From NCBI RefSeq assembly GCF_003018255.1, contig NZ_CP027440.1: a stretch of DNA of 64,000 nucleotides; one strand, written 5' to 3'. The DNA comes from Escherichia coli (GTDB lineage Bacteria; Pseudomonadota; Gammaproteobacteria; Enterobacterales; Enterobacteriaceae). The notes under the pieces were generated by a model. The model was not told the DNA's origin, made no database searches, and saw only the letters and a program-made list of their open reading frames with translations. This document shows, piece after piece, positions 21,691 to 46,771 of this stretch. The translations under genes and the position numbers were made by a program. Each line of letters begins with the position of its first letter. The stretch's first letter is position 1.

Positions 21691-23298
21691 TCAATGTGCC
21701 TTGATATACAACTCTTTGCTGTAGACATAATCCTGGGGATTATGCAGCGGAAAACCGCCAACGTAGGGTTTAAGCAGTTTGATTAACGGCTGATAGTAGA
21801 TGGGAATCAGCGGTGCCTGCTGGTTGATGATCACTTCTGCCTGCTGATACAACGCATTACGCTTTGTCGCATCAGTGATCTGCGTGGCCTGGTTTAGTAA
21901 GGCGTCATACTGCGCATTTTTCCAGTGACCGACGTTTTCTTCACTATCGCTTTTGAGCGTGTTCAGGAAGCTGGAGGCATCATTGTACGTCGCATCCCAC
22001 GACTGCCGAGACAGCATAAAATCACCGGCTCGTCGGGCATCAAGATAGGTTTTCCACTCCATTGTGCGCAGCGTCACCTGTGCACCCAGCCATTTTTTCC
22101 ATTCGGAAGACAACGCTATCGCGGTCTTTTCATGCAGATCGTACTTGTTGTAGAACAGCTCAAAGCGTAGCGGATGAGAGGCGTCGTATCCCGCCTGTTT
22201 CAGCAAGGCTTTTGCCATCGCGACACGCTCACTCATTGGCTTTTGCAGTTCATCGAACGTCGTCGCGCTAAAGCCTTTTACCTCTGGCGGCGTCAGCGTG
22301 GTTGCGGGCGTTCTCAACCCCAGTACCTTTTGCGCAATAAGCTGTCGATCAACCGTAAGATATAGCGCCCGACGCACCCGCACATCGTTAAATGGCGGTT
22401 TCTCAAGGTTAAAGTTGTAATATTCGCTGTTCAGACGCGGGATAATTCGTAGCTCGCCAGGCAGTGATTTTTCAATGGCGGGAATTTGCTGCGCCGGAAC
22501 CCAGGTGAGATCGACCTCTCCCGCGCGATAGCGGTTATAGCCGGTGACCGAATTATCCAGCGCCAGATACTCAACCTGTTGCAATACCGTATGTTGCGCA
22601 TCGCGGTACTTTGGATTTTTGCGTGCGGTAATCTTTTCGTTAACTACCCATTTATCAAGCACAAAGGCACCGTTGTAAACCATGTTCTCTGGCTTACTCC
22701 AGCTATCGCCATGTTTAGCGATGACATGATGAGGAACCGGGAACAACGTCGGCCAGGCGAGCATCGTCGTAAACCAAGGAACTGGCTGCTCAAGCGTAAC
22801 TTCAAGAGTACGATCATCCGTCGCTTTGATCCCCAGCGATGTAACATCTGCTTTACCCGCAACAATAGCCGCGGCATTGTTAATGTGCGCCTGTGCCAGA
22901 TAGCCAGCAAAAGGGCTTGCCGTTTTCGGGTCAACCGCACGTTGCCAGCCGAGGACAAAATCCTCTGCCGTCAGAGGCTGACCGTCTGACCACTGCAAAC
23001 CGCTACGCAGATGGAAAATATAGCGCTTGCCGCCGTCAAGTATCTCCCAGCGTTCAGCCTGAGCGGGCTGCACCTGGCCTTCACCGTCCATCCATACCAG
23101 ACCTTCAAACAGATCCAGCACAATCTGCGCGGCAGTATTCTCCTCTACCTTTTGCGGGTCGAGCGTGCCTGGGTCGCTATGATTGTTGTAACGAAAGACT
23201 TGTTGCGGGGCGAGCGGTGTGTTGGCGGGAACGTCAGCAGCGTAGAGAGGAGCCGCACTTACCAGGCTGACCAGCCATAATAAATTTCGCGTATACAT
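21691..23298 (-). CDS. ygiS: Periplasmic oligopeptide-binding-like protein YgiS (535 aa)
   Basis: Track ORF 556 aa; start set at MYTRNLLWLVSLVSAAPLYA (signal peptide) matching known YgiS; ABC substrate-binding family 5. Confidence 0.9.
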   Translation of the reverse strand: MYTRNLLWLVSLVSAAPLYAADVPANTPLAPQQVFRYNNHSDPGTLDPQKVEENTAAQIVLDLFEGLVWMDGEGQVQPAQAERWEILDGGKRYIFHLRSGLQWSDGQPLTAEDFVLGWQRAVDPKTASPFAGYLAQAHINNAAAIVAGKADVTSLGIKATDDRTLEVTLEQPVPWFTTMLAWPTLFPVPHHVIAKHGDSWSKPENMVYNGAFVLDKWVVNEKITARKNPKYRDAQHTVLQQVEYLALDNSVTGYNRYRAGEVDLTWVPAQQIPAIEKSLPGELRIIPRLNSEYYNFNLEKPPFNDVRVRRALYLTVDRQLIAQKVLGLRTPATTLTPPEVKGFSATTFDELQKPMSERVAMAKALLKQAGYDASHPLRFELFYNKYDLHEKTAIALSSEWKKWLGAQVTLRTMEWKTYLDARRAGDFMLSRQSWDATYNDASSFLNTLKSDSEENVGHWKNAQYDALLNQATQITDATKRNALYQQAEVIINQQAPLIPIYYQPLIKLLKPYVGGFPLHNPQDYVYSKELYIKAH

Positions 23299-23406
23299 GG
23301 TATTCCTTACCGGAGAAATTATAAGCCCGACAACAATACGCCTGTGGCATTGTTTGCTCAAACTTATCGCGAGTGATTTGGCTCACACTCCGGTAAAGAT
23401 TCCCCA

Positions 23407-23889
23407 TCACGCCAACGGCACATAAATATCCGTTTCCAGTCGCCGCTCTGTCATCCCTTCGGCAAGATTGGTGTAGTGAAACAGGATCGGGGCTTTGCGC
23501 ATTTTTTCGCCGCTTGCAGGTAGCCAGTGGCGAATGATGCCCCATATCGTGTGTGAAATATCGTCCAGCTCGCCAACATGGCGGGCAACAGCATAACGCC
23601 CACCGGTAAGTTCGCCATTACTCACGCCATAACGATTATCGGGGATCGGTTCGCTAACGCTGCCGCAGATATCAAAGCGAAACGCTTCTGGTGCGGTGGT
23701 GGCTGGGTCGTCCCAGGCGACGCCAAAAGTCTGGCTTTGGTTAACAGGAGAAAGCCCCGTCTCTTTACGCCACATGATAAATTTCGCCACGCTGTAGTTG
23801 AGCAACTCAGGGCTACAGCGGTGCGGCAACATCGCCACAGGGATTGATGGGAAATCGATAATATTTACATCCAGTGTCAGGTTTGTCAT
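23407..23889 (-). CDS. ygiV: GyrI-like domain transcriptional-regulator-related protein YgiV (160 aa)
   Basis: ORF track 160 aa; recognised sequence. Confidence 0.88.
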   Translation of the reverse strand: MTNLTLDVNIIDFPSIPVAMLPHRCSPELLNYSVAKFIMWRKETGLSPVNQSQTFGVAWDDPATTAPEAFRFDICGSVSEPIPDNRYGVSNGELTGGRYAVARHVGELDDISHTIWGIIRHWLPASGEKMRKAPILFHYTNLAEGMTERRLETDIYVPLA

Positions 23890-25145: not shown

Positions 25146-26491
25146 AATTTACCCAACGTCTTAGTCTGCGAGTCAGGCTGACGCTAATCTTTTTAATTCT
25201 GGCCTCAGTGACCTGGCTGCTTTCCAGCTTTGTCGCCTGGAAACAAACAACGGATAACGTCGATGAGTTGTTCGACACCCAACTGATGCTGTTTGCCAAA
25301 CGGTTAAGTACGCTCGATCTCAACGAAATCAACGCGGCAGATCGCATGGCACAGACGCCAAATAAATTAAAACACGGTCATGTTGATGACGATGCGCTGA
25401 CCTTTGCCATCTTTACCCACGACGGCAGAATGGTCCTTAACGATGGCGATAACGGAGAAGATATTCCCTATAGCTATCAACGGGAAGGTTTTGCTAACGG
25501 GCAACTGGTCGGTGAAGACGATCCCTGGCGTTTTGTCTGGATGACCTCACCTGATGGCAAATATCGCATCGTTGTTGGTCAGGAATGGGAATACCGCGAA
25601 GACATGGCGCTGGCGATTGTTGCCGGGCAATTGATCCCGTGGCTTGTCGCACTGCCGATTATGTTAATCATCATGATGGTACTACTGGGTCGTGAACTCG
25701 CGCCGCTGAACAAACTGGCGCTGGCACTACGTATGCGTGACCCTGACTCGGAAAAACCACTAAACGCGACGGGCGTACCCAGCGAAGTGCGTCCACTGGT
25801 TGAGTCGTTGAATCAACTGTTCGCCCGCACACATGCGATGATGGTTCGTGAACGACGCTTTACCTCCGACGCAGCTCACGAACTTCGTAGCCCGTTAACG
25901 GCGCTGAAAGTGCAAACCGAAGTTGCGCAGCTCTCTGACGATGATCCGCAGGCGCGGAAAAAAGCGCTGCTTCAATTACATTCCGGAATCGATCGTGCTA
26001 CTCGTCTGGTTGATCAACTGCTCACGCTATCGCGGCTGGACTCACTGGATAACCTTCAGGACGTCGCGGAGATCCCGCTTGAAGATCTCCTGCAATCGTC
26101 GGTGATGGATATTTACCACACGGCGCAGCAGGCGAAAATTGACGTGCGACTGACACTCAAAGCCAACGGCATCAAACGCACCGGACAACCGCTATTGCTA
26201 AGTTTGTTGGTGCGAAATTTGCTGGATAACGCCGTGCGCTACAGTCCACAAGGTAGCGTGGTAGACGTCACGCTGAATGCCGATAATTTCATCGTGAGGG
26301 ATAACGGCCCCGGTGTGACACCAGAGGCATTGGCGCGAATTGGCGAACGCTTCTATCGCCCACCCGGACAAACCGCTACCGGCAGTGGACTTGGGCTATC
26401 GATTGTCCAGCGAATCGCCAAGCTGCATGACATGAATGTTGAATTTGGGAATGCGGAACAAGGTGGATTTGAGGCGAAGGTAAGCTGGTAA
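25142..26491 (+). CDS. qseC: Sensor histidine kinase QseC (449 aa)
   Basis: ORF track 449 aa; HAMP/HisKA/HATPase architecture; recognised sequence. Confidence 0.95.
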
Positions 26492-26496
26492 CTTCT

Positions 26497-26538
26497 CTGT
26501 CTATGAGAGCCGTTAAAACGACTCTCATAGACTTTACT
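26497..26538. terminator. Hairpin (10-bp perfect stem) between convergent qseC and ygiZ
   Basis: Seen in sequence: tctatgagag ... ctctcataga inverted repeat immediately after the qseC stop; no strong T-run. Confidence 0.35.
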
Positions 26539-26869
26539 AATAGCAAAATATAAACCGTCCCCAAAAAAGCCACCAACCACAACCCAGACAAATAACGAGC
26601 GAGAATACATATAGCCAAAACTCGAACATTTCCCGCATAAAGAGTTTTCTTAAGATAAGAATAATAAGTGGTGTCAGAAGAAAAAATGCTGCAATCATTG
26701 CTTGCAATATACGATCTTCGCCTGAAACAGAAGGTATACTGCAAATATTGTCTCCCGACTCAAGCATCCAGTCATACTTATTGAAAGCAAAAAAAGAATC
26801 TATTAACCAATAAGTAAGCATTATATATAATAGTGCTTCAAATATTGATAGTAGTTGTTTTTTTAACAT
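26537..26869 (-). CDS. ygiZ: Small inner-membrane protein YgiZ (110 aa, about 3 TM segments); here the third gene of the hcp module
   Basis: ORF track 110 aa; hydrophobic segments; ATG lies 6 nt after the stop of the upstream 236-aa gene; AT-rich like the insert. Confidence 0.85.
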   Translation of the reverse strand: MLKKQLLSIFEALLYIMLTYWLIDSFFAFNKYDWMLESGDNICSIPSVSGEDRILQAMIAAFFLLTPLIILILRKLFMREMFEFWLYVFSLVICLGCGWWLFWGRFIFCY

Positions 26870-26875
26870 ATCTGA

Positions 26876-27586
26876 TTACTCATTAATCAATTTTTTGATA
26901 TGTTCTCTAATCTCTAACAACCTCATACCATAAGAGATGAATTTATAATCATCTGTATCACGCGCAGGCAAATTATTAATTAAACAAATAAAAAAGCCCA
27001 AATCTCGTTCAACACCACGATTATATCTAATACCAGCCATAATATACTGCTCATTCGTCATATACAGTGTTGCCGAAGAGGGATAATCAAAAAGGACAAG
27101 ATCTCTTAAATAAGTAGCAGCAATTTGAAAGGTAAAATCATCCTCCATTAGGCATGTCGCTAACTCTAACTGATTTCTGGTAGTTAATTCTGAAGGGTCT
27201 AGACCTAGAGTAATCGCTGCGGTTCGTATTTGTATACCCATTGAGCCAAATGATGTTTTATTTTCAGGCATATCTAACAATCCCATCATTCTTTTTGTTT
27301 CATATATCTGAAACTTATAATTTTCAGGCATACCTCCTGACTCAATCCAGGCCACGCCGCCCAGTAACTCTGGACGAATTCCAGCGGCGTATGCATGTTT
27401 AATTATTTTGTCTCTATTATATTGTACATATGCATCTTTATAAGCATTTAAATAATATACTCCTGAACGGCGACGCGAATCATTTTTTCCTAACTTCCAG
27501 AGTAAAACGTCCATTTCATCCCATTTACGGAACTTCGCTTGTGGAATTGTACAATATCTATTTTTTATAGTGAGATCGCTTTTCAT
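26876..27586 (-). CDS. Hypothetical protein (236 aa from ATG; track ORF extends to a TTG at 27613); possible lysozyme-like / lytic-transglycosylase-like T6SS cargo
   Basis: ATG begins 2 nt after the hcp stop; no signal peptide; contains V-x3-E-S-x3-P (VAWIESGGMP) followed by GSMGIQIRTAAITLGL and IRYNRG, reminiscent of SLT-domain motifs (ES...GLMQ...AYNxG). The family assignment is inference only. Confidence 0.6.
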   Translation of the reverse strand: MKSDLTIKNRYCTIPQAKFRKWDEMDVLLWKLGKNDSRRRSGVYYLNAYKDAYVQYNRDKIIKHAYAAGIRPELLGGVAWIESGGMPENYKFQIYETKRMMGLLDMPENKTSFGSMGIQIRTAAITLGLDPSELTTRNQLELATCLMEDDFTFQIAATYLRDLVLFDYPSSATLYMTNEQYIMAGIRYNRGVERDLGFFICLINNLPARDTDDYKFISYGMRLLEIREHIKKLINE

Positions 27587-27588
27587 AT

Positions 27589-28068
27589 TTAAAAAATCCT
27601 TTCTTCCCAACAACTATATGATTCCGTACTCGCGATATGGTGCTTCCATGTTATATTTTTATAATTAAGAACAATGACCTCTTCCGGCTGATTACCCGCA
27701 TGTGTAATTGAGTGTGGATAACATGTCAGAATATTCGATAAATGTGCTCCTTGCAATTCAATTGTGTAAAACCTTTCAATACAACCGCCAGAATTAACTC
27801 TATAAAAATTAAATACAGCTGATAACTCTTCATTTTCAGAAAGAGCGGCATTTAATAAAGGGGAGGATTTATCTATTGGCTTGTAAAATTTTATGGGGTG
27901 ATGCACTACATTATACTCTCGACTTAAAGAATGGTCGAACTGTAAAACAAAAATTTCATCCACATGATTTATTTGATATTTATTACCAATAGATGCATAC
28001 GAACCACAACCCTCAGAGATCAAACCTTGTATTTTCCCTTTAATTGATAAGTATATGATATTTGACAT
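27589..28068 (-). CDS. hcp: Hcp family type VI secretion tube/effector-carrier protein (159 aa), orphan copy
   Basis: 159 aa, typical Hcp size; blocks HPIKFYKPIDKSSPLL and LNYKNITWKH...SYSCWEER align with canonical Hcp motifs (TPFxFTKEIDxSSPxL, ITWTY...SWNER); GGAG Shine-Dalgarno upstream of ATG; no other T6SS structural gene in the window. Confidence 0.85.
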   Translation of the reverse strand: MSNIIYLSIKGKIQGLISEGCGSYASIGNKYQINHVDEIFVLQFDHSLSREYNVVHHPIKFYKPIDKSSPLLNAALSENEELSAVFNFYRVNSGGCIERFYTIELQGAHLSNILTCYPHSITHAGNQPEEVIVLNYKNITWKHHIASTESYSCWEERIF

Positions 28069-28317
28069 ATATATTCTCCATAATCATTTTTTCCGAAAAA
28101 CTCCTGTATCATTTGCATAATACATCTCTCCTGTGGGAGCTTATGGGAAGTTGATTTAAGTATTGTCATTTTCAGAAAATATTTATCCCGCATCGGTGAA
28201 TCAGAGAAAGATCAGACTTTTGCTAAATTCGCAAAAGACTTTGCACATTTTGCTAATTTCACCGTACCGCTCTGTGACGTACTATAGTCGGCAAACGTCT
28301 CACCTTGAGGTTAAAAA

Positions 28318-28899
28318 ATGAGCAACATCCTGATTATCAACGGCGCGAAAAAATTCGCCCACTCCAATGGTCAACTGAACGACACCCTGACCGAAGTCGC
28401 GGATGGCACACTGCGCGACCTCGGGCATGATGTCCGCATTGTTCGCGCCGACAGCGACTACGATGTCAAAGCGGAAGTACAAAACTTTCTCTGGGCTGAT
28501 GTGGTGATCTGGCAGATGCCTGGCTGGTGGATGGGCGCGCCGTGGACAGTGAAAAAATATATTGATGATGTATTCACCGAAGGTCACGGGACTCTGTATG
28601 CCAGCGATGGTCGTACCCGCAAAGATCCATCAAAAAAATACGGTTCCGGCGGCCTGGTACAGGGCAAAAAATATATGCTTTCTCTGACCTGGAACGCACC
28701 AATGGAAGCCTTCACCGAAAAAGATCAGTTCTTCCACGGCGTTGGTGTTGACGGTGTGTACCTGCCGTTCCATAAAGCAAACCAGTTCCTTGGCATGGAA
28801 CCGCTGCCGACATTTATCGCTAATGACGTGATAAAAATGCCTGATGTTCCCCGCTATACTGAAGAATATCGCAAGCATCTTGTGGAAATTTTTGGTTAA
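28318..28899 (+). CDS. mdaB: NADPH:quinone oxidoreductase MdaB (193 aa)
   Basis: ORF track 193 aa; recognised sequence. Confidence 0.95.
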   Translation: MSNILIINGAKKFAHSNGQLNDTLTEVADGTLRDLGHDVRIVRADSDYDVKAEVQNFLWADVVIWQMPGWWMGAPWTVKKYIDDVFTEGHGTLYASDGRTRKDPSKKYGSGGLVQGKKYMLSLTWNAPMEAFTEKDQFFHGVGVDGVYLPFHKANQFLGMEPLPTFIANDVIKMPDVPRYTEEYRKHLVEIFG

Positions 28900-29288: not shown

Positions 29289-30176
29289 TTAGCCATTCTT
29301 TCTTCCCGTTTTCAGTCCTCGATGGAAATCGTTAATTCGCTTAATGGTTTTAACCGCACGCTGCGGCACTGCGGAAGCTACCGACCAGACAATCATTTCC
29401 AGACACAACAATACCGTACCATGTAGCGGCGTTTTCCCTTTTTCATCCCCGCGCGGAACATGAATCACGATACTGGCGTCTTTGCTAAAACGTGAATCCA
29501 GCGCGTTTGTCAGCAAAATAACAGGGATCCCTAGCCGCCTCGCCTCACGAAGCGTTGTCAGCCCTTCCCGGTGCGCTGATTTTTGCGCCATCATGATCAG
29601 AACATCGCCACGTTGAAGCGCGATCAGTTGCTCGGCAAGGCCAATACCCGTACGGTTTAGTGCCGTGGCAGGCAAACCTATGCGGTTGAATAGTCGTGCG
29701 GTATAGTCCGCCAGAATACCCGAAGCGCCAATGCCAAAAATTGCGACTTGCCGTGCCTGCACCAACAACGCTACAGCTTGCGCAAGCGCGTGGCGGTTTT
29801 CAGGCTCTGACAGGACATTACAGGTATACAAATGCCCTTCAAGAACAAAGTCGATTGCGGTGTTAACATCGCTCGTCAAGTTACTCACCGTCGTAGACAT
29901 CTTTTCGCTGGAACTAAGGGCTGGACCAAGCCACTGTTCCAGAGTGCGTTTCAGATCACGCAGCCCGGCAAACCCCAGGGCCTGTATAGCCCTGATAACT
30001 GTGGCATCGGAAGTGTTCAACGTGGCCGCAATTTCCATCGCCGTTTGCTCGAGTACCACTTCACGATGCTCATTAATGTAGCTGGCGACAACTCTTAACC
30101 CAGGCGTTAACTGACTCGCGCGAGTGCGAAAACGCTCACCAAAAATATCAACCCGCACTTTATCTTTCTGGATCAT
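29289..30176 (-). CDS. RpiR/MurR-family transcriptional regulator (HTH_6 plus SIS domain), 295 aa
   Basis: N-terminal RpiR-type HTH (TSDATVIRAIQALGFAGLRDLK) and C-terminal SIS domain; the start ATG overlaps the stop of the upstream substrate-binding gene in an ATGA arrangement. Confidence 0.82.
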   Translation of the reverse strand: MIQKDKVRVDIFGERFRTRASQLTPGLRVVASYINEHREVVLEQTAMEIAATLNTSDATVIRAIQALGFAGLRDLKRTLEQWLGPALSSSEKMSTTVSNLTSDVNTAIDFVLEGHLYTCNVLSEPENRHALAQAVALLVQARQVAIFGIGASGILADYTARLFNRIGLPATALNRTGIGLAEQLIALQRGDVLIMMAQKSAHREGLTTLREARRLGIPVILLTNALDSRFSKDASIVIHVPRGDEKGKTPLHGTVLLCLEMIVWSVASAVPQRAVKTIKRINDFHRGLKTGRKNG

Positions 30177-31120
30177 TTAGCCTCCGGTAGAGGTCGCCCT
30201 GCAATTTGTGATTGTATCTGCGCAGCCATCAGCCCCAGAGATGCAAAGGAGTTAGAAATTGCCTCTTCACGAGAAATCAGCACATAACGCCCGGAACGAC
30301 AGGCAGTCAGAAACTGACACCATCCCGGCATGACTTTTTCCATTGCTGCCAGCTCATCCTGAGGTTTACCACCGGTGTCACCGCGCCAGGTTGCAAAAAC
30401 AAAATCGGCATCCAGTTCAGGTAAACGCTCCGCGCTCACATCCATTCGCCCACCTTCAGGAATGCTCTCAATCAGCGGCGGAAAACGAAAACCCGCATCG
30501 CGTAATACCCGCCCCAGCGAATGATAGCTATGCATCACATTAATTTTTCCCTGGTTTGCCTGAATCACCGATACCGTTATTTTTTGGCTGTCCAGCGTCG
30601 CCTTCAGCGCATTGATTTGTGCCTGATAGCGGCGTTCAAGTATCGCCAGCTGCGACTGCGTTCCTGTAAGTCCTGCCAGCTTGCGATAGATTTCTGGCGC
30701 ACCCCCTTTGAGATGATCAATGCTCACCGTGGGCGCAATTTTTTCAAGTTGTTCAATGGGCGTATTACGGGTCGGTTCTGTGATGATCAGGTCAGGCTTT
30801 GCCGCCACAATCGCTTCAATATCAATATCAGCGGTACCAATAAAGGCGATCGATGAATTATCAAAGTCGACACCTGTCAATAACGCGCCAGATCGAATGA
30901 AATGGCTACCGTCAGGCCGAGTTCGCCCGTGGCTGGCGACAGGAGGTACACCGAGCTCAATCAGAGGAATAGTGATATCAAGATCGTGTAAAGAGACAAT
31001 TCTCTTTGGATGAGCAGGAACAGTGACTTTGCGCCCTAAATCATCAGTAAATACCTGAACAGGTTCTGTTGCACGGGAAAAAAATGACAACAGTATCAGC
31101 AGAGAAAAAAATAAACGCAT
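30173..31120 (-). CDS. Periplasmic iron-siderophore/cobalamin-type ABC substrate-binding protein (FecB/FhuD-like), about 315 aa
   Basis: Start set at MRLFFSLLILLSFFSRA signal peptide with GGGAG Shine-Dalgarno (track ORF extends to 31183); class III binding-protein-like sequence; operon context with FecCD permeases. Confidence 0.82.
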   Translation of the reverse strand: MRLFFSLLILLSFFSRATEPVQVFTDDLGRKVTVPAHPKRIVSLHDLDITIPLIELGVPPVASHGRTRPDGSHFIRSGALLTGVDFDNSSIAFIGTADIDIEAIVAAKPDLIITEPTRNTPIEQLEKIAPTVSIDHLKGGAPEIYRKLAGLTGTQSQLAILERRYQAQINALKATLDSQKITVSVIQANQGKINVMHSYHSLGRVLRDAGFRFPPLIESIPEGGRMDVSAERLPELDADFVFATWRGDTGGKPQDELAAMEKVMPGWCQFLTACRSGRYVLISREEAISNSFASLGLMAAQIQSQIAGRPLPEAK

Positions 31121-31130
31121 ATAACTCCCG

Positions 31131-32180
31131 TTAAAAACTGTTCCTGCGCTGCCAGAGCAGTAGCAAAAAAAATGGTCCACCAATCAGTGAGATAATGATT
31201 CCGGCAGGCAGTTGCAAAGGCAAAAAAGCCAAACGACCAATGCTATCCGCCAGAATAACTAACAACGCCCCCGATACCGCGCTCCCCAGCAGTAATGTCG
31301 TCTGCCCGCCACGTAGAATAAAACGTGATATATGGGGTGCTATCAATCCGACAAAACCGATGTTACCAACACACGAAACGCAGACGGCTGTCAGGATTAT
31401 TGGTGCGGCGACACGTAACAACGCCAGACGAGAACTATTCACCCCTAACCCGGTTGCAACCTGATGACCAAGCAGAGCGATATCCGCCGTCCTGGCGGTG
31501 AACAGCAATAAAAGAGCGGCTGGCAACATCCAACAGGCTGAAATACCGACTAACATCCAGTTAGCTGCATGCAGGCTTCCCGATAACCACATCAATGCAG
31601 TTTGTACATCTCGAACATCTGCAGTGGTCATAAATACACCGATACCGGCGGCGAAAAACCAGGAAACACCAATACCAATCAGAACAAATCGCGGGCGGGA
31701 AATATCGCGCGCACAAAAAATCACGATTAAAGCCACCAACAAGCCACCAGCAAGACCAGCCACTGGACGCCAGAACATTCCCAGCATTGGAAACTGGAAA
31801 ATCAGCCACAGCACCGCCACGCTACATCCTTCTTTGACGCCGATTAAACCAGGATCGGCAAGGCCGTTACGCGCAATGGATTGCATCGCGGCCCCCGCCA
31901 TACCTAACATGGCTCCGCATAGCAATGCCATGATGACTCTCGGCAAGCGAATATCCTGCACAATATAACGTGCGTCTGTGCTTACGTTTTCTGGAGCAAA
32001 CAACGCTCGTCCTACTTCCGATGCCGGGACAGAAAAAGAACCCTGCATCAGACCGAATATCAGTATTCCAACCGCAAACAGAAACAGCCCACCAAGCAAC
32101 AGCAGATTTTTAGGGCGTACCAGTGTCGAAAACTTACCAACACGTAGTGGGCGTAGCCCGACGTTCATTATCCGACTCAT
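31131..32180 (-). CDS. FecCD-family ABC permease (349 aa)
   Basis: Polytopic membrane protein; FecCD/BtuC-type sequence; start overlaps the upstream permease stop. Confidence 0.85.
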   Translation of the reverse strand: MSRIMNVGLRPLRVGKFSTLVRPKNLLLLGGLFLFAVGILIFGLMQGSFSVPASEVGRALFAPENVSTDARYIVQDIRLPRVIMALLCGAMLGMAGAAMQSIARNGLADPGLIGVKEGCSVAVLWLIFQFPMLGMFWRPVAGLAGGLLVALIVIFCARDISRPRFVLIGIGVSWFFAAGIGVFMTTADVRDVQTALMWLSGSLHAANWMLVGISACWMLPAALLLLFTARTADIALLGHQVATGLGVNSSRLALLRVAAPIILTAVCVSCVGNIGFVGLIAPHISRFILRGGQTTLLLGSAVSGALLVILADSIGRLAFLPLQLPAGIIISLIGGPFFLLLLWQRRNSF

Positions 32181-33160
32181 TTGAACATCCTCGTCGCCAT
32201 AATGACAAAAACAGGCGCACCAACTAACGCCGTCATGACACCGGTCGCTAACTCATGGGGCGTGAAAAGCGTCCGGGCAATAATATCTGCCAGTAATAAC
32301 AAAAGTGCGCCGACACAAGCTGAAAGAGGGAGCAGAACGCGCAGATCCGCTGATACCAGACGCCGGACAATCTGCGGTACCAACAGGCCGACAAAACCAA
32401 TGGGGCCAGCAATCGATACGGCTGCGCCACAGAGCAACGCGATCGCAAGCAGGGTAAATGTTCGCGTGCGGAGTACAGAGACGCCCAGCCCCTGCGCCAT
32501 GCGATCGCCCAGTGCCAACATGTTAAGGTAGGGTGCAAGGTAAAGGGCTAACACAAATCCCCCCAGAGAAAACCAGGCGGACGTACCCAGCGTCGCCCAA
32601 TCCTGCCCCGCTAAATCACCTGCTAGCCATGTCCGCATCGCCAGCAGTGTTTGTTCGTCAAGAATCAGGATTGCAGCCGTTATTGAGGACACGAACGCCG
32701 ATAGCGCCACGCCGCATAAAGTAACTTTCATTGGCGTTACCCCTGAACGCCCTGCGGAGGAAAGCAGCAATATCAACAGGAACAATAACGCGCCCCCCGT
32801 AGATGCCAGCAGTGGGCGTCCAACCGGAAAGGCCAGTCCAAGCGCACTGGCGGCAACGACAGCAAGAGCGGCTCCGGCATTTAAGCCTAAAATATGTGGC
32901 TCCCCCAATGGGTTACGAATGACAGCCTGCAACAAAGCACCAGCAACACCAAGAGAAGCACCGGTAAGCAATGCTGCCGCTAAACGCGGCAAACGGAGTC
33001 TTACAATTACGTTGTGATCGAAGTTTTGCGGATCAAAATGAAGAAATGCCTGCAACACCGTTTGTGGTGCAATAAATCGGGCACCAATCCCTGGATATAC
33101 CACGCATCCCACCAGCAGTAAGGCGAGGAAAATTACAGTAACCAGCCCTGTGCGCATCAT
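32177..33160 (-). CDS. FecCD-family ABC permease (327 aa)
   Basis: Polytopic membrane protein paralogous to the adjacent permease; start overlaps the ATPase stop. Confidence 0.85.
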   Translation of the reverse strand: MMRTGLVTVIFLALLLVGCVVYPGIGARFIAPQTVLQAFLHFDPQNFDHNVIVRLRLPRLAAALLTGASLGVAGALLQAVIRNPLGEPHILGLNAGAALAVVAASALGLAFPVGRPLLASTGGALLFLLILLLSSAGRSGVTPMKVTLCGVALSAFVSSITAAILILDEQTLLAMRTWLAGDLAGQDWATLGTSAWFSLGGFVLALYLAPYLNMLALGDRMAQGLGVSVLRTRTFTLLAIALLCGAAVSIAGPIGFVGLLVPQIVRRLVSADLRVLLPLSACVGALLLLLADIIARTLFTPHELATGVMTALVGAPVFVIMATRMFK

Positions 33161-33966
33161 ACTTTTTCTACACCACGAAACGGCATGAAGAACGGCTTTC
33201 CCGTCAGAGGATTTATTGATGCGTGAACATCAACGTCAAAGACAGCTTTTACCAGCTCAGGCGTGCAATGCTCCCCCTCATTCAACACACGCACCACTTT
33301 CCCCTGGCGTAAAAATATCAACGTATCGCCATAATTGACGGCAAAATTCAGATCATGCAACACCACGACGACTGTACGCCCGTGATGACGCGTTAAATCA
33401 TGTAATAACTCAAGAATTTCAACCTGATAACGTAAATCAAGCCAGGTTGTGGGTTCATCCAGCAGGATATAAGGCGTCTTTTGCGCCAACACCATCGCAA
33501 TCCAGCAACGCTGGCGCTGCCCACCAGAGAGTTTTTCAACAGGTAAATGTGCAAACTCCTGCGTACCGGTTAATTTCAGGGCCTCTTCCACCGCCTGCTC
33601 ATCGGCGTCGCTCCATTGACGTATGAAATTTTGCCAGGGAAAACGCCCACGCGACACCAGTTCATAAACGGTTAAGCCCTCCGGCAATAATGGCGACTGC
33701 GGCAAGATCCCAAGTCTACGGGATAACGCTTTCGTTGGTTGCTCGTGAATCGCTTTGCCATCAAGCAATATCGAACCGCCCATAGGTTGCAAGATACGTG
33801 CAATGGTGCTGAGCAACGTCGACTTTCCACAGCCGTTTGCCCCAACCAGAACGGTCATTTTTTCTGTGGGAACGGAGAAAGAAACACCATCAACAATGAT
33901 CTTCTTGTGATACCCGGCAGAAACATTGTCGAGGATCAGCCCCTGCCCTTTTGCGTTATGTGCCAC
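33157..33966 (-). CDS. ABC transporter ATP-binding protein (FecE/FhuC-like), 269 aa
   Basis: Walker A GANGCGKST, ABC signature LSGGQRQR, Walker B ILLDEPT; GTG start. Confidence 0.88.
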   Translation of the reverse strand: MAHNAKGQGLILDNVSAGYHKKIIVDGVSFSVPTEKMTVLVGANGCGKSTLLSTIARILQPMGGSILLDGKAIHEQPTKALSRRLGILPQSPLLPEGLTVYELVSRGRFPWQNFIRQWSDADEQAVEEALKLTGTQEFAHLPVEKLSGGQRQRCWIAMVLAQKTPYILLDEPTTWLDLRYQVEILELLHDLTRHHGRTVVVVLHDLNFAVNYGDTLIFLRQGKVVRVLNEGEHCTPELVKAVFDVDVHASINPLTGKPFFMPFRGVEKV

Positions 33967-34220
33967 GTGTACGCCAACTTAATCAAAGACAAACAAAAAT
34001 AAAACTCATTCTCCTTTGAGAGTTTGACGCCACAAAATGTAGTAGTCAAGCAGTTAAAAGCCACACAAAAACAAGGTAAATAACAGGTAAAATATTTTTA
34101 TACATAAAAATAAAAACATTAAATATCAATAAATTAAAAGCAATCAAATTGTATAAGCCTTTCATAAAAACACATGTAGCAATTTTTTGTTATTTCTCAT
34201 TTACTACTACATTACTGCGT

Positions 34221-34240
34221 GATTGAATGATTCTCAATTA
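34221..34240 (+). promoter_or_regulatory. Putative Fur-box-like element upstream of the TonB-dependent receptor gene
   Basis: gattgaatgattctcaatta partially matches the Fur consensus, about 100 nt upstream of the receptor start within an AT-rich divergent promoter region; weak. Confidence 0.3.
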
Positions 34241-34339
34241 CATATCCGATGGCGAAATAACAAACGGATAGTGCTTAGTGAGCAATAAGAAACAATTTTC
34301 ACTCGCGACAATCCGCGAGTTTTTGGGATAACAGACTAA

Positions 34340-36481
34340 ATGGCTATGTTCACACCTTCATTCTCAGGACTCAAAGGTCGGGCGCTCTTTTCACTGCTTT
34401 TTGCGGCACCGATGATTCATGCAACAGACTCTGTAACGACCAAAGATGGCGAAACAATCACTGTTACAGCAGATGCAAATACCGCAACTGAGGCAACCGA
34501 TGGTTATCAACCTCTGAGCACCTCCACGGCGACATTAACCGATATGCCGATGCTGGATATCCCGCAGGTGGTCAATACGGTTAGCGATCAGGTTCTGGAA
34601 AACCAGAATGCGACGACGCTGGATGAGGCGCTTTATAACGTCAGTAACGTGGTACAGACCAATACATTAGGCGGGACTCAGGATGCTTTTGTACGCCGTG
34701 GGTTTGGCGCAAACCGGGATGGCTCCATCATGACCAACGGTCTGCGAACCGTACTTCCTCGCAGTTTCAACGCCGCCACAGAACGTGTGGAAGTGCTAAA
34801 AGGCCCGGCCTCCACGCTGTATGGCATTCTCGATCCTGGCGGACTGATTAACGTCGTGACCAAGCGCCCGGAAAAAACATTCCATGGTTCGGTTTCAGCC
34901 ACCTCCTCCAGTTTTGGTGGCGGCACTGGGCAACTTGATATCACAGGTCCCATTGAAGGCACTCAGCTGGCGTATCGCCTTACCGGGGAAGTGCAGGATG
35001 AAGATTACTGGCGAAACTTCGGTAAAGAGCGCAGTACATTTATTGCCCCGTCACTCACCTGGTTTGGTGATAATGCAACAGTAACCATGCTCTATTCCCA
35101 TCGGGACTATAAAACTCCGTTCGATCGTGGAACGATTTTCGACCTTACGACGAAACAGCCCGTAAACGTTGATCGAAAAATACGTTTTGACGAACCGTTT
35201 AATATTACAGATGGTCAGTCCGATCTGGCGCAACTCAACGCAGAATATCATCTCAATAGCCAGTGGACAGCGCGCTTTGATTACAGCTACAGCCAGGATA
35301 AATACAGCGATAATCAGGCGCGTGTTACCGCGTATGATGCAACGACAGGAACACTGACACGGCGTGTTGATGCAACTCAGGGATCTACCCAGCGTATGCA
35401 TGCTACTCGTGCGGATCTGCAAGGGAATGTTGATATTGCCGGATTCTATAATGAGATTCTGGGTGGGGTGTCATATGAATATTATGATCTTCTGCGTACA
35501 GATATGATTCGCTGTAAAAAAGCTAAAGATTTCAATATCTACAACCCTGTTTATGGTAATACCAGCAAATGTACAACGGTTTCGGCGTCGGACAGTGATC
35601 AGACGATCAAACAGGAGAGCTACTCAGCGTATGCACAGGACGCACTCTATCTGACCGATAACTGGATTGCCGTCGCCGGGATCCGCTATCAGTATTACAC
35701 GCAGTATGCGGGTAAAGGCCGTCCTTTTAATGTCAATACTGACAGCCGCGATGAACAATGGACTCCCAAACTGGGGTTGGTCTACAAACTGACGCCATCG
35801 GTATCCTTATTTGCCAATTATTCGCAAACATTTATGCCGCAGTCGTCAATTGCCAGCTACATTGGCGATCTTCCACCGGAATCATCTAATGCTTACGAAG
35901 TCGGGGCAAAATTCGAGCTATTCGATGGTATCACCGCAGATATTGCGCTGTTTGATATCCATAAACGTAATGTGTTGTATACCGAAAGTGTTGGTGATGA
36001 AACCATTGCCAAAACGGCAGGCCGTGTTCGTTCAAGAGGGGTAGAAGTCGACCTTGCGGGAGCATTAACTGAAAACATTAATATCATTGCCAGCTACGGC
36101 TATACCGATGCTAAGGTTCTGGAAGATCCTGATTATGCAGGTAAACCATTGCCGAATGTTCCTCGTCATACCGGTTCGCTATTCCTGACCTATGACATTC
36201 ATAACATGCCTGGCAATAACACACTGACGTTTGGCGGTGGTGGACATGGCGTAAGCCGTCGTTCGGCAACCAATGGGGCTGACTATTATCTGCCAGGCTA
36301 TTTTGTTGCCGATGCCTTCGCCGCATACAAAATGAAATTGCAGTATCCGGTCACACTGCAATTAAACGTCAAAAACCTGTTTGATAAAACGTATTACACC
36401 TCTTCCATCGCCACAAATAATCTGGGGAATCAGATTGGCGATCCGCGTGAAGTGCAATTCACGGTGAAAATGGAATTTTGA
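34340..36481 (+). CDS. TonB-dependent outer-membrane siderophore-type receptor (713 aa)
   Basis: Signal peptide, TonB-box-like ETITVTA, plug and barrel sequence blocks, C-terminal aromatic residue (..VKMEF); divergent from the ABC importer operon (arrangement resembles fit-type iron uptake loci; symbol not assigned). Confidence 0.9.
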   Translation: MAMFTPSFSGLKGRALFSLLFAAPMIHATDSVTTKDGETITVTADANTATEATDGYQPLSTSTATLTDMPMLDIPQVVNTVSDQVLENQNATTLDEALYNVSNVVQTNTLGGTQDAFVRRGFGANRDGSIMTNGLRTVLPRSFNAATERVEVLKGPASTLYGILDPGGLINVVTKRPEKTFHGSVSATSSSFGGGTGQLDITGPIEGTQLAYRLTGEVQDEDYWRNFGKERSTFIAPSLTWFGDNATVTMLYSHRDYKTPFDRGTIFDLTTKQPVNVDRKIRFDEPFNITDGQSDLAQLNAEYHLNSQWTARFDYSYSQDKYSDNQARVTAYDATTGTLTRRVDATQGSTQRMHATRADLQGNVDIAGFYNEILGGVSYEYYDLLRTDMIRCKKAKDFNIYNPVYGNTSKCTTVSASDSDQTIKQESYSAYAQDALYLTDNWIAVAGIRYQYYTQYAGKGRPFNVNTDSRDEQWTPKLGLVYKLTPSVSLFANYSQTFMPQSSIASYIGDLPPESSNAYEVGAKFELFDGITADIALFDIHKRNVLYTESVGDETIAKTAGRVRSRGVEVDLAGALTENINIIASYGYTDAKVLEDPDYAGKPLPNVPRHTGSLFLTYDIHNMPGNNTLTFGGGGHGVSRRSATNGADYYLPGYFVADAFAAYKMKLQYPVTLQLNVKNLFDKTYYTSSIATNNLGNQIGDPREVQFTVKMEF

Positions 36482-36483
36482 TC

Positions 36484-36509
36484 AAAAAAGCCCGGTATGT
36501 TTACCGGGC
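36484..36509. terminator. Bidirectional terminator between receptor gene and GPH symporter gene
   Basis: Seen in sequence: A-run, then gcccggta-tgtt-taccgggc hairpin (T-run on the minus strand). Confidence 0.5.
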
Positions 36510-36588
36510 TGAGACTGATGACAAACTCCAAATTGTCTGATGCGCTACGCCCATCAGATCTACCATAGAAATTCAATATATTAAATTT

Positions 36589-37920
36589 TCATATATTTTT
36601 AGGCTGTAAACACACCTTAATCTGTTCGTAATATTCATTATTAATCAGATAAAATCTCATGATGAGTCCGGTAATCAGGTTAAGTATCGCGGGAATGATC
36701 GTCATTAACAGGCAGATCCCCCACAACGCCTGTGGTGTTTGTTCTACGCCAGGTTGATAGTCCATAAACGCTAAAGCGATTCCGATAAACCCTCCCGCCA
36801 GTCCCATACCAAACTTTTGAAAAAAGAGAATCCCGCCAAATGCCAGTCCAGAAACACGTTGCCCCGTTTTCATTTCACCATAATCCACTGACTCAGCAAT
36901 GGATGCCCAATAAATGGGAAGCTGAATATCAGTCAGAAAGGTCACCACAATATAAAATGTAAAAGCTAACACTATAGAATTTGGTTGCACGAAATACATC
37001 GCACCACCCACCACGAACGCCAGTAATTGGGTATAACGAAATATTTTTATTTTGTCGTAGAGTCGAGTAAGCCAGGTGCAAGCGATCATAGCCAGAACAG
37101 AGGCGATCACGCCTGAAGTTAAAAACGGTGAAATTAAAGCATCCCCACCATTCAGGTAATATTTTGCATAATATGCAGCGACAGAGTTACGAATAATCCC
37201 GCCAAACATAATGATCGCAATTACAGCGCCCAAAATGAGCCATTGATCATTTTTGATCAGTAACCGAAACTGCGCGGCCATACCGAGACTGGGTTTTGGA
37301 TGGTAGATGCGCTCTCTCACGCTAAAAAAACAATACAGGCATAAACACGTTGCCAGAATTCCCATTGCCCCCATTGCTATTTGATAACCCAGTTGTACGT
37401 TATTCTTCCCAAGATACATTGCAGATAAAGGAACAATAATTGTTACGGCGAACATGGCAATTTTTGTCATAACAAAACGATAACCATTGGCGCTCAATCG
37501 CTCTTGTGGATCATCCGTGATAACGCTGATTAATGAAACATAAGGAATAGCGATTAACGTATAGGTCAAGGTAAGTAACACATAGGTAGCCCAAGCCCAT
37601 AAAAGCTTAACTGAATAATCGGTATTAGGTGTGGTGAACATCAACCAAATGCTTATCCCAAACGGTATTGACATAAAAAGCAACCACGGCCGATATTTTC
37701 CCCAACGTGTATTCGTTCTGTCTGTCATTGTTCCCACAACTGGATCAATCACAGCATCAAGGATACGTACAGAAAATAACAGAATACCTAAGTCGACGGG
37801 TTTCAGACCAAATACATCCGTGTAAAAATAAGTGATGATCATGGCCAAAGACATCATTACTATCGCGATAGCCATATCACCAGCACCAAAACCTATCTTT
37901 TCATTTATTGTAAGTTTCAT
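36589..37920 (-). CDS. MFS/GPH-family glycoside-pentoside-hexuronide:cation symporter (about 443 aa)
   Basis: 12-TM-like hydrophobic profile with MelB/GPH-like N-terminal region (GFGAGDMA, DxxxDPxxG-like DAVIDPVVGTMTDR); start set at the ATG for MKLTINEK. Confidence 0.8.
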   Translation of the reverse strand: MKLTINEKIGFGAGDMAIAIVMMSLAMIITYFYTDVFGLKPVDLGILLFSVRILDAVIDPVVGTMTDRTNTRWGKYRPWLLFMSIPFGISIWLMFTTPNTDYSVKLLWAWATYVLLTLTYTLIAIPYVSLISVITDDPQERLSANGYRFVMTKIAMFAVTIIVPLSAMYLGKNNVQLGYQIAMGAMGILATCLCLYCFFSVRERIYHPKPSLGMAAQFRLLIKNDQWLILGAVIAIIMFGGIIRNSVAAYYAKYYLNGGDALISPFLTSGVIASVLAMIACTWLTRLYDKIKIFRYTQLLAFVVGGAMYFVQPNSIVLAFTFYIVVTFLTDIQLPIYWASIAESVDYGEMKTGQRVSGLAFGGILFFQKFGMGLAGGFIGIALAFMDYQPGVEQTPQALWGICLLMTIIPAILNLITGLIMRFYLINNEYYEQIKVCLQPKNI

Positions 37921-38206
37921 ACACAGCACTCATTGATTACGTGAACTTATATTAAAAACAAATATATCTGAACTCATTCAGCACATAACTTTACGAGTGA
38001 GCATAAATGCATTGGTTGATACCACAACAAACCATTGAGTCAATATTGAGCAACATCACATAAAAACCAATTTCACTTAATCTCATGATTTATATATTTA
38101 ATTGTGGTTTTTTCTGTTTTATGTCACAGATAGTGAACAAGCACCATGCGTAATAAAAGTTAAAGAATGTAGAGTTGGTATCAACCACTTGAAATGAGGC
38201 TTTGTC

Positions 38207-38959
38207 ATGATAAAAATTTATAAAGCCAGTAAAGGTCAGCTAAAGCATCGTGAAATCTTTGATGAAATAAAGAAAAAAGTAGATAACGGTGAATGGAAAG
38301 AAGGCAAAGCCATACCGACAGAAAGGGAATTGTCAGAATATTATTTAAGTAGCAGAACAACTATTCGAAAGGCAATAGAAAGTCTTAAACAACGCGGCTA
38401 CCTGCATAGTGTCCACGGGCAAGGAACATTTGTATTGCCTTCTCGTAGTAGAGAAAATCATTTATTGCATAGTTTTACCGACGATATTAAAGCTCGAGGT
38501 GGTATACCAGCACAGAATATTCTTGAGATAGGCTATGTTCCTGTCAGTGATGTTATCAGAAAAAATCTCGACCTGGATATCCATATCCAAACCGTATTCT
38601 GTATAAAACGCGTTCGCTATATGGGAAGTACCCCCCTGGGTATTCAGACATCATGGCTTGCATTAAATGACAGGCAAGAAATAACCCAAGAAGATCTGCT
38701 GGCGACGGGTTCGCTCTATATTTTACTGGAAGAAAAACTCGCTATTAAACCTTTAGAAGCAACAGAAATTATCTCTGCCCGGCTTCCCTCGCCCCTTGAG
38801 CGTCAATTACTGGAACTGACTGCCGATGATGTCGTATTAAGTTGTACCCGCGTCACGTTATCCGTGGAACGCAAACCAATGGAGTATGTAGAGATGGTGT
38901 ATCCCGCAAGCCGGTACTCCTACAAAGCACGAATTACAAAAGACAGTTTTAGCGTGTAA
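38207..38959 (+). CDS. GntR/HutC-family transcriptional regulator with UTRA effector domain (250 aa)
   Basis: N-terminal GntR winged HTH (PTERELSEYYLSSRTTIRKAIESL) and a C-terminal domain of UTRA length. Confidence 0.85.
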   Translation: MIKIYKASKGQLKHREIFDEIKKKVDNGEWKEGKAIPTERELSEYYLSSRTTIRKAIESLKQRGYLHSVHGQGTFVLPSRSRENHLLHSFTDDIKARGGIPAQNILEIGYVPVSDVIRKNLDLDIHIQTVFCIKRVRYMGSTPLGIQTSWLALNDRQEITQEDLLATGSLYILLEEKLAIKPLEATEIISARLPSPLERQLLELTADDVVLSCTRVTLSVERKPMEYVEMVYPASRYSYKARITKDSFSV

Positions 38960-38972
38960 CAGAGAGAATATT

Positions 38973-40049
38973 GTGAACAAAATAGAACAAGCTGTAATTT
39001 ATAACAAAATATTAGGTTCTTTAGCCTGCGCAGGTATGGGCGATGCATTAGGCGCAGCGACTGAACTCTACAGCATTGATGAAATAAAAGCTCAATGGGG
39101 AGGTTTTTTAAATGCCTTTGTTTCTCCTCCTGCCGATACATTCGCTGGCTCATTAAATGGTATTGCGGGACTTATCACCGACGATTCCAGCCAAATGTAT
39201 GTGTTTTCAGAAGGGTTAATTGAGGCTGGATTTGATAACTTCACCAATAATGACTGGTTAGCTTGTCTTCTGCGTTGGGCCGATATGCAGCCCTACGCAA
39301 ATTATAAAGGCCCCACAACAGAACAAATCGTCAAGGCACTAAAAGAAGGTAGACCAACAAACACCATTGGGCGTATTGGAACATCTTCTCGTCAGGCACC
39401 CAATGTCGGCACCACGAATGGAGCAGGAATGCGTGTAGCCCCTGCAGGATTGATCTGGCCAGGCAAGAAAGAAAAAGCGTGTCACCTGGCGCTAATAACT
39501 TGCCTACCTTCGCATGACACCAATATTGCGATTGCCAGCGCTTGCGCCATCGCTGCGGCGACATCACAAGCTATGTTACCAGAAGCTTCGCTCACATCAT
39601 TACTGGACGCCGCAATCTGGGGAGCGAATTACGGCGAACGCCTGGCCAAACAATATGCACGATGTGTCGCAGGGCCATCTATCGCCATGCGCATCCAACT
39701 TGCAGCGGACATCGCCAGACGAGCCAATGACCTGGAGTCTTGTCTGCGAGAAATGGAAGGTTTGGTTGGTAACTCTGTTGCCGCCCATGAATCCATTCCT
39801 GCGGCAATCGGTCTATTGCTGTACTGCAAAGGAGAACCCTGGGAAACCATTCATGCCTGCGCCAATATTGGCAATGACACCGATAGCATCGCTACGATGG
39901 CAGGCGCAATTGCAGGGGCATGGCGCGGTTTTGATGCGCTCCCTGAAGATAAATATGCCTTTTTCCGCGCCGTAAATAATAAAGATTTCGATATTGAAGC
40001 GATCGCATCGGGTCTGACATTGCTTGCATTAGAGGCACAGGAGAAATAA
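38973..40049 (+). CDS. ADP-ribosylglycohydrolase (ARH/DraG) family protein (358 aa)
   Basis: N-terminal GSLACAGMGDALGAATE and C-terminal NIGNDTDSIATMAGAIAGAW blocks match the two conserved ARH-family metal-binding regions. Confidence 0.8.
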   Translation: MNKIEQAVIYNKILGSLACAGMGDALGAATELYSIDEIKAQWGGFLNAFVSPPADTFAGSLNGIAGLITDDSSQMYVFSEGLIEAGFDNFTNNDWLACLLRWADMQPYANYKGPTTEQIVKALKEGRPTNTIGRIGTSSRQAPNVGTTNGAGMRVAPAGLIWPGKKEKACHLALITCLPSHDTNIAIASACAIAAATSQAMLPEASLTSLLDAAIWGANYGERLAKQYARCVAGPSIAMRIQLAADIARRANDLESCLREMEGLVGNSVAAHESIPAAIGLLLYCKGEPWETIHACANIGNDTDSIATMAGAIAGAWRGFDALPEDKYAFFRAVNNKDFDIEAIASGLTLLALEAQEK

Positions 40050-41047: not shown

Positions 41048-41051
41048 GACT

Positions 41052-41966: not shown

Positions 41967-41993
41967 AATCATATATATACAAAGGTAAATATC

Positions 41994-43118: not shown

Positions 43119-43213
43119 AGTCAAACTATAGATACAAAAACATTCTAATACATGGAATCATCAGATGGTGTATTCGATCACCAAAAATATATTTTATTCT
43201 GAAAGGGAATATT

Positions 43214-43948: not shown

Positions 43949-43961
43949 TCTGGAATAAAAA

Positions 43962-44875: not shown

Positions 44876-46771
<1,896 letters not shown>

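Follow-up and report, generated by a model that had tools for sequence, protein, structure and literature searches.

Is the hypothetical protein encoded directly behind an orphan hcp gene of Escherichia coli a peptidoglycan-cleaving toxin that leaves the cell with Hcp? The gene lies at positions 26876 to 27586 (minus strand) of the 64,000-nucleotide (nt) stretch of contig NZ_CP027440.1 that was analyzed here (the window), and its open reading frame (ORF) translates into 236 amino acids (aa) without an internal stop. RefSeq lists the product as a "hypothetical protein" (WP_000834024.1). An earlier note on this DNA had named it as a candidate toxin of this kind, citing a partial match to the lytic transglycosylase signature that it cautioned could be coincidental. 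The candidacy is now supported in silico by the predicted fold, by matches of the family profile to MltE and Tse3 and of some relatives to Pfam SLT, and by linkage to hcp in 14 of 14 close-family loci. Beyond that note, we add confirmation of the fold, a toxin family that extends across several secretion systems, and a link to YgiZ/DUF2645 as predicted immunity. It is probable, in our view, that hcp, the 236-aa ORF (hereafter the toxin, for brevity), and ygiZ together form a mobile type VI secretion system (T6SS) effector-immunity cassette.

Fold and conserved motifs of the toxin

AlphaFold2, supplied with a 50-sequence alignment, produced a confident model of the toxin, with a mean predicted local distance difference test (pLDDT) score of 92.6 and a predicted template modeling (pTM) score of 0.89. 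The model is all-alpha and lysozyme-like, with a substrate groove. In a structure comparison, all 36 best matches were lysozyme-like peptidoglycan or chitin glycosidases, and Foldseek returned the same proteins. The lysozyme-like fold that the earlier note had proposed to look for by structure prediction is thus present, and no confident match to an unrelated family, which it had named as evidence to the contrary, was encountered.

The profile-profile searches that had also been proposed point in the same direction. Searched against the PDB, the family profile gave MltE (E 0.027) and Tse3 (E 0.07) as best matches, and hhalign comparison of the toxin family with K-12 MltE gave E 1.4e-4 at a probability of 52%. 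This alignment places AWIE82SGGMP on IAIE64SGGNP, that is, Glu82 on the catalytic Glu64 of MltE, and RYNRG on SYANG; it also pairs L-x-D-x-x-N-L-x-I-A-A-x-[HY]-L with LKNPERNISMGAAYL. The match of motif II to MltE lies off the hhalign path and is one of spacing: the Ser-to-Gln distance of 7 equals that from Ser75 to Gln82 in the translation of K-12 emtA. Between motifs I and II, the toxin has an insertion of about 22 residues (helix 89-101). Among relatives, Pfam SLT is matched at E ≤ 1e-3 in one of 50 and one of 64 sequences and at E ≤ 0.1 in nine of the 64 (best E 1.2e-5), and UniProt automatically names several relatives "Transglycosylase SLT domain-containing protein". Because the fold matches, the profile and hhalign matches, and this minority of SLT matches agree, we assign the toxin to a divergent branch of the GH23/SLT lysozyme-like superfamily that has no Pfam model of its own. 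No NCBIfam or PADLOC model matches the 236-aa toxin, and a PDB search with its single sequence returned only noise. The toxin matches the unnamed phrog_11932 in PHROGs (E 4e-28). The idea of deriving a muralytic function from phage lysis cassettes failed, as tblastn against 50,697 phage records gave no match.

The toxin and its conserved elements are as follows.

26876..27586, minus strand: toxin candidate, 236 aa, 27.5 kDa, predicted lysozyme-like (GH23/SLT-type) fold, no internal stop
27326..27355, minus strand: motif I, V78-AWIESGGM-P87; Glu82 and Gly85 invariant, Pro87 in 49/50
27341-27343, minus strand: codon of the predicted catalytic Glu82, within motif I
27230..27256, minus strand: motif II, T111-SFGSMGI-Q119, GLMQ-like; Ser112 and Gln119 invariant, Thr111 and Gly114 at least 96%
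27014..27028, minus strand: motif III, R187-YNR-G191, AYNxG-like; Gly191 invariant, Tyr188 in 49/50, Asn189 in 46/50
26927..26932, minus strand: Tyr219-Gly220 in the C-terminal helical region, conserved in 48/50 and 49/50, respectively

Relatives were collected by a HMMER scan of 1.84 billion cluster representatives (E ≤ 1e-3), which yielded 299 representatives at 50% identity, spanning Enterobacterales to Streptomyces and cyanobacteria. Conservation refers to an alignment of 50 relatives with identities down to 24%. Glu82, Gly85, Ser112, Gln119, and Gly191 are invariant in this alignment, and conservation reaches at least 90% at Thr111, Gly114, Arg187, Tyr188, Asn189, Tyr219, and Gly220. Glu82 is also invariant in a set of relatives numbering 64 (64/64). 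The family has additional conserved regions, an N-terminal W-x3-D-x3-W and a C-terminal Y-G.

All three strings that had drawn attention to the protein are present in the 236-aa ORF: VAWIESGGMP at residues 78-87, GSMGIQIRTAAITLGL at 114-129, and IRYNRG at 186-191. Their reading as an SLT signature holds for Glu82 and for motifs II and III, which are conserved, but not for the Ser of "E-S". Position 83 is variable (Val in 27, Ser in 10, and Ala in 10 of 50), and the PROSITE-like match is therefore partly fortuitous at this residue. The caution about coincidence was likewise justified for the short pattern [LIVM]-x3-E-S-x3-[AP] alone, which turns up eight times when the window is translated in six frames, that is, at chance level; it does not extend to the ordered trio, which occurs in this ORF only. 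At the level of sequence, the case for the motif being more than chance is its conservation across relatives.

The toxin has a pI of 8.3, and neither a signal peptide, a lipobox, nor a hydrophobic or amphipathic membrane-anchoring segment was found in its 236 residues. No second acidic residue is strictly conserved after Glu82 (Asp or Glu in 68% at position 88 and in 38% at position 86). Because no second carboxylate is strictly conserved there, the predicted chemistry leans weakly to a lytic transglycosylase yielding 1,6-anhydro-N-acetylmuramic acid (1,6-anhydro-MurNAc) over a muramidase leaving a reducing end; the best structural match, Tse3, is described as a muramidase and runs counter to this lean.

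The hcp-toxin-ygiZ cassette and its predicted mode of action

The toxin gene is the middle one of three, which lie in an AT-rich islet.

27589..28068, minus strand: orphan hcp (tssD), first gene of the cassette, 159 aa; TIGR03344 at E=2e-58, above the curated cut-off
26537..26869, minus strand: ygiZ, 110-aa DUF2645 three-helix inner-membrane protein, predicted cognate immunity
26500..28300: AT-rich islet with hcp, toxin, and ygiZ, 31-37% GC against about 47-56% in the flanks
28069..28317: hcp-mdaB intergenic region (mdaB divergent), presumed promoter region of the cassette from the ORF map

The coupling to hcp that the earlier note had claimed is borne out by the TIGR03344 match of the upstream gene and by the spacing. 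Only 2 nt separate the TAA stop of hcp from the ATG of the toxin, and 6 nt separate the toxin TAA from the ATG of ygiZ. RefSeq calls the product of 27589..28068 a "Hcp family type VI secretion system effector", and the solved structures nearest to it are Pseudomonas aeruginosa Hcp3 and Vibrio cholerae Hcp (E about 1e-20). We prefer the ATG at 27586 over the TTG at 27613 as the toxin start, since homologues begin at an aligned Met. UniProt A0A192CC60 is a 245-aa model that starts from TTG 27613 and overlaps hcp; RefSeq and the homologue alignment back ATG 27586 and 236 aa. A consensus scan of 28069..28317 revealed no convincing minus-strand sigma-70 site upstream of hcp.

The order hcp-toxin-DUF2645 is found in 14 of 14 close-family Enterobacterales loci examined, the window included. 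The neighborhoods of the cassette are unrelated to one another and may be chromosomal or plasmid-borne, as in Pectobacterium, Serratia, Chania, L008 (44%-identical toxin), and Rahnella. With the close-family toxin alignment as query, 100,044 species genomes yielded eight loci, all from Enterobacterales (Pseudocitrobacter, Pectobacterium, Buttiauxella, Citrobacter, and Serratia), and all eight have the identical order. Across these loci, identity to the window is 55-77% for Hcp, 56-73% for the toxin, and 28-64% for the downstream DUF2645 protein, which is the fastest-evolving of the three, as expected for an immunity protein. Linkage to hcp in the window and 13 other loci and a mass of 27.5 kDa, which fits the Hcp lumen, are the properties looked for in an Hcp cargo. 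A JGI metagenome protein of 325 aa (P0002) joins the first ~100 Hcp residues in frame with the toxin from residue ~12, in the manner of an "Hcp-ET" fusion; its cluster has this one member, and a deletion or faulty assembly could account for it.

Outside this cassette, the domain occupies the C terminus of 64 longer relatives. Their N-terminal Pfam partners are eCIS_core/DUF4157 (seven), PAAR (three to four), and RHS, WXG100, PPE, and phage MuF (one each). On these architectures, the domain is a polymorphic-toxin module, the partners being delivery domains of T6SS, type VII secretion systems (T7SS), extracellular contractile injection systems (eCIS), and phage heads. Relatives with peptidoglycan-binding modules of the OmpA family (four) or PG_binding_1 type (one to three) independently point to the cell wall as the likely target.

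In all full-length loci that were examined, the gene directly 3' of the toxin encodes a small membrane protein, DUF2645 or DUF2645-like. The pairing is kept in the absence of hcp: a 35%-identical E. coli paralogue and a PAAR-fused form are each followed by DUF2645, a homologue from a hydrothermal vent by a weak DUF2645 match, and the WXG100-fused, Cronobacter plasmid, and Streptomyces plasmid forms by a protein of ~100 aa with two to three predicted hydrophobic segments. It holds at 30-40% toxin identity; the one exception is a truncated Rhs contig with a transposase downstream of the toxin. In the Streptomyces sp. NBC_01201 plasmid (L026 1731-3887), the toxin domain follows a long helical N terminus in a 460-aa protein; a 151-aa protein with the start MAWDEWEQLK lies before it and a hydrophobic one of 103 aa after it. 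This arrangement is reminiscent of a toxin-immunity locus of type VII secretion.

YgiZ looks like the cognate immunity protein of the toxin. Many of the small downstream proteins have a [KE]-[YE]-x-W-M motif shortly after the first helix. All full-length Enterobacterales-type members seen have both a loop Cys and a C-terminal Cys, four divergent members have neither, and this joint presence or absence suggests that they may form a periplasmic disulfide. Together with the positive N terminus and the turn between helices 2 and 3, the Cys pair indicates that YgiZ probably has an N-in/C-out topology with a periplasmic loop of ~25 residues. In an AlphaFold2 model of the toxin and YgiZ joined by a linker, built with a paired 15-sequence alignment, YgiZ forms three long helices (pLDDT ~88-92).

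A possible mode of action would combine these elements. The co-encoded Hcp would carry the 27.5-kDa toxin out through a T6SS encoded elsewhere and inject it as a cargo effector into the periplasm of neighboring Gram-negative cells. There, the lysozyme-like domain would cleave the backbone of peptidoglycan between MurNAc and N-acetylglucosamine (GlcNAc), with Glu82 as the general acid. YgiZ would bind or block incoming or self-made toxin at the membrane surface. What the analysis shows is the order of the genes, the fold, the conserved residues, the domain architectures, and the co-occurrence of the genes; catalysis, export, toxicity, and immunity with its mechanism are proposed from these computational results. 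If this is correct, an uncharacterized and widespread family of peptidoglycan-backbone-cleaving toxins, the 299 representatives mentioned above, joins the T6SS repertoire. Neutralization of a soluble glycosidase-fold toxin by a three-helix membrane protein would be mechanistically unusual and could indicate a membrane-proximal target; immunity through a short extracytoplasmic loop would be a mode not described for peptidoglycan glycosidase toxins.

Known effectors and alternative explanations

Among known systems, the closest functional likeness is to Tse3 (Tge1) of P. aeruginosa, a T6SS muramidase (PDB 4luq, 3wa5, 4m5f), which would make the toxin a Tge-type T6SS effector in kind. It lies outside Tge1 (Tse3-Tsi3) proper, with 14% identity to Tse3 and a profile E of 0.07. 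Tse3 has ~400 aa and an extra N-terminal domain and is encoded apart from hcp, whereas the toxin has 236 aa and is hcp-linked; Tsi3, the Tse3 immunity protein, is soluble and periplasmic, whereas the partner of the toxin is a DUF2645 protein with three transmembrane (TM) segments. The toxin is built like the family 1 lytic transglycosylases (GH23, PF01464: MltE/EmtA, Slt70, MltC, and MltF) but differs from them in the ~22-residue insertion, the N-terminal W-x3-D-x3-W, and the C-terminal Y-G. Unlike them, it also has no SLT match, signal peptide, or lipobox, and its domain is a toxin module, not a housekeeping enzyme. Tge2 of Pseudomonas protegens (PDB 4kt3), TseP (PDB 8xcl), and Tse4 and Tae17 of Acinetobacter baumannii are structurally far more distant and have other immunity and delivery partners; Tse4 and Tae17 are described as VgrG-linked and bifunctional (PMC11796386). 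Ssp6/Sip6 of Serratia marcescens shares with our cassette a small Enterobacterial effector, sometimes beside an orphan hcp, and a small membrane-embedded immunity protein. Ssp6 is an ion-selective pore-former with no reported structural homology to enzymes, in contrast to the glycosidase fold and motifs found here, and no E. coli homologue of it is listed. As an identity for the toxin, Ssp6 was provisionally set aside on indirect evidence, namely its homologue table, which lacks E. coli, its different immunity family, and the lack of a hydrophobic segment in the toxin. The Hcp2B-XmtU/XmtV module of avian pathogenic E. coli (PMC5874247) and the SleB-like effector (PMC11148199) were likewise considered and set aside. 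The toxin is an extension of a well-known effector class.

Several observations weigh against a peptidoglycan-cleaving effector with YgiZ as its immunity protein. A Pfam scan of the 236-aa toxin returned no model even at E ≤ 10, PF01464 (SLT) included, and at the level of sequence its relation to SLT is marginal (PDB search E 0.027, hhalign probability 52%), with the variable residue 83 adding to this picture. The 64-kb window holds no other T6SS gene, the T6SS core included. The linker-fused model of the toxin and YgiZ has a pTM of 0.59 and gives no usable interface information. In the literature, with subscription journals thinly covered, we found no description of the toxin, of the cassette, or of DUF2645/YgiZ as immunity. 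To our knowledge, the immunity proteins of peptidoglycan hydrolase effectors are soluble periplasmic proteins or lipoproteins; by comparison, an integral-membrane immunity protein with a short periplasmic loop would be atypical for such effectors and typical of membrane-targeting toxins.

A membrane-embedded immunity protein would be accounted for if the same enzyme, delivered in the same way, acted on a membrane-proximal substrate, such as lipid II or nascent lipid-linked glycan at the outer face of the inner membrane. The partner has three TM segments in all full-length loci, one actinobacterial locus included, and its short extracytoplasmic loop suggests neutralization at the membrane surface. 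Against this stand the polymeric peptidoglycan on which the nearest structural matches act, the sacculus-binding modules (OmpA or PG_binding_1) of some relatives, and the lack in the toxin of any hydrophobic or amphipathic segment that could anchor it in the membrane; we regard this variant as serious but improbable. A small, multi-TM, membrane-resident immunity protein is also the architecture that accompanies membrane-damaging or pore-forming toxins such as Ssp6, Tse4, and the pore-forming colicins, in which case the lysozyme-like fold would be a mere scaffold, and Ssp6-like effectors are likewise found beside orphan hcp genes in Enterobacteriaceae (PMC6889166). Such a toxin is very unlikely here, given the invariant Glu at the catalytic position, the conserved glycosidase motifs, and the lack of a hydrophobic helix. 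Moreover, the 95 published Ssp6 homologues include no E. coli genome, yet the toxin gene is present in 23% of the complete genomes of this species, and Sip6 is a 67-aa protein with two TM helices, not a DUF2645 protein.

T6SS assembly itself can call for an opener of the cell wall, as with MltE in enteroaggregative E. coli and TagX in Acinetobacter, and a dedicated remodeler of the producer's own peptidoglycan would fit both a gene that adjoins a T6SS structural gene and the presence of MltE among the closest structures. That the toxin is no weapon is nevertheless hardly credible: it has no signal peptide or lipobox, its domain forms the C terminus of polymorphic toxins of the PAAR, RHS, and WXG100 types, it invariably has a small, fast-evolving partner gene downstream, and the cassette is mobile and far from any T6SS core cluster. 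The cassette might also be a remnant that has decayed or fallen silent, so that in this lineage it can no longer be expressed or delivered and the gene has no current function. The AT-rich islet, the H-NS repression of ygiZ in K-12 (PMC3950696), the lack of a recognizable promoter upstream of hcp, and the presence of the cassette in sequence type 131 (ST131), of which sublineages without a T6SS are reported (PMC10711316), would be consistent with such decay. In contrast, 1261 genomes have the ORF intact and with an identity of at least 95%, one truncated copy being noted, all catalytic-motif residues are retained, and hcp and the toxin have been kept together, which makes a remnant distinctly unlikely, though particular lineages may hold one. 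Returning to the preferred reading of an effector-immunity cassette, we can extend it tentatively, and with more doubt than confidence. The toxin and DUF2645 may constitute a new effector-immunity class across T6SS, T7SS, eCIS, and phage MuF, in which a GH23-like enzyme would impair cell-wall synthesis by acting on lipid-linked or nascent glycan at the membrane surface and be blocked by the short extracytoplasmic loop of an integral-membrane protein; the nearly universal orphans ygiZ and yjeO would then be standing defenses against phylogroup-B2-type attackers.

Distribution in E. coli and neighboring genes

Of 5426 complete E. coli genomes, 1261 (~23%) have the toxin gene at an identity of at least 95%, and its annotation is "hypothetical protein" in every case. 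The cassette hcp is found in 1263 complete genomes and the ygiZ region in 5425 of the 5426. About one in four complete E. coli genomes thus has the cassette, uropathogenic E. coli (UPEC) and ST131 strains among them; if it works as proposed, it would at this frequency be a candidate factor when gut and urinary E. coli compete. Several UPEC and other E. coli isolates match the stretch 26400-28400 with 100% identity, and the local order is ygiV-ygiW-qseB-qseC-ygiZ-[hypothetical]-[hcp]-mdaB-ygiN. In K-12, ygiZ stands alone between qseC and mdaB, and one segment is missing.

26880..28140 (1261 bp), no strand: hcp+toxin segment absent from K-12, which has 131 unrelated bp instead

In a blastn comparison of the K-12 qseC-mdaB region with the window, homology breaks off at 26879, the final base of the 6-nt spacer and toxin stop codon taken together, and resumes at 28141, 72 nt upstream of hcp. 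Because the ygiZ region is nearly universal and the toxin is not, ygiZ is, on gene content, an orphan immunity-type gene in ~77% of E. coli. Most E. coli, K-12 included, would have lost hcp and the toxin or never had them, while keeping ygiZ as an orphan immunity gene. K-12 YgiZ is described as a protein of the inner membrane; BglJ-RcsB activates its promoter, and H-NS represses the gene (PMC3950696). If the immunity assignment is true, DUF2645 and the K-12 genes ygiZ and yjeO gain a testable function, as orphan immunity genes in almost all E. coli.

The second of these genes belongs to another locus. Of 5426 E. coli genomes, 45 have a paralogous toxin (P0040, 35% identical) and DUF2645 pair (L010 3501-4528, L011) at the epmA-yjeM-yjeN-yjeO-mscM locus. 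K-12 YjeO (L013 5394-6019) is a DUF2645 protein, 53% identical to the immunity protein of the paralogous pair and 88% identical to the truncated copy upstream, and from this similarity yjeO looks like an orphan immunity gene of the same kind as ygiZ. K-12 YjeN was considered as a toxin remnant and rejected, as it resembles neither the toxin nor DUF2645.

Within the pandemic lineage E. coli O25b:H4-ST131, record NZ_OX637961.1 (714500-714979) has the cassette (hcp region) at 99.6% identity. Parallel loss of T6SS is reported for multidrug-resistant E. coli lineages including ST131 (PMC10711316), and some carriers of the cassette may be unable to deliver it. A search for T6SS core clusters in cassette-bearing genomes, which used hcp DNA to look for distant matches, returned only the cassette's own hcp. 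A single plasmid-borne copy was seen among E. coli records, a 97%-identical toxin gene at 60214-60921 of NZ_MG591698.1, a 353-kb record labeled as a plasmid.

The window differs from K-12 at two further places near the cassette. At 23362-23406, no gene separates ygiS (21691..23361) from ygiV (23407..23889), whereas K-12 has the mqsR-mqsA toxin-antitoxin pair there; the window strain therefore lacks mqsRA at this site. In K-12, parE directly follows ygiN, whereas the window has an insert of ~15 kb at approximately 29289-44800, whose genes include those for a MurR/RpiR regulator and for the substrate-binding protein and FecCD permeases of an iron-siderophore ABC transporter, together with an ORF of 713 aa. 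Beyond this insert, the 630-aa ORF at 44876..46768 is probably parE.

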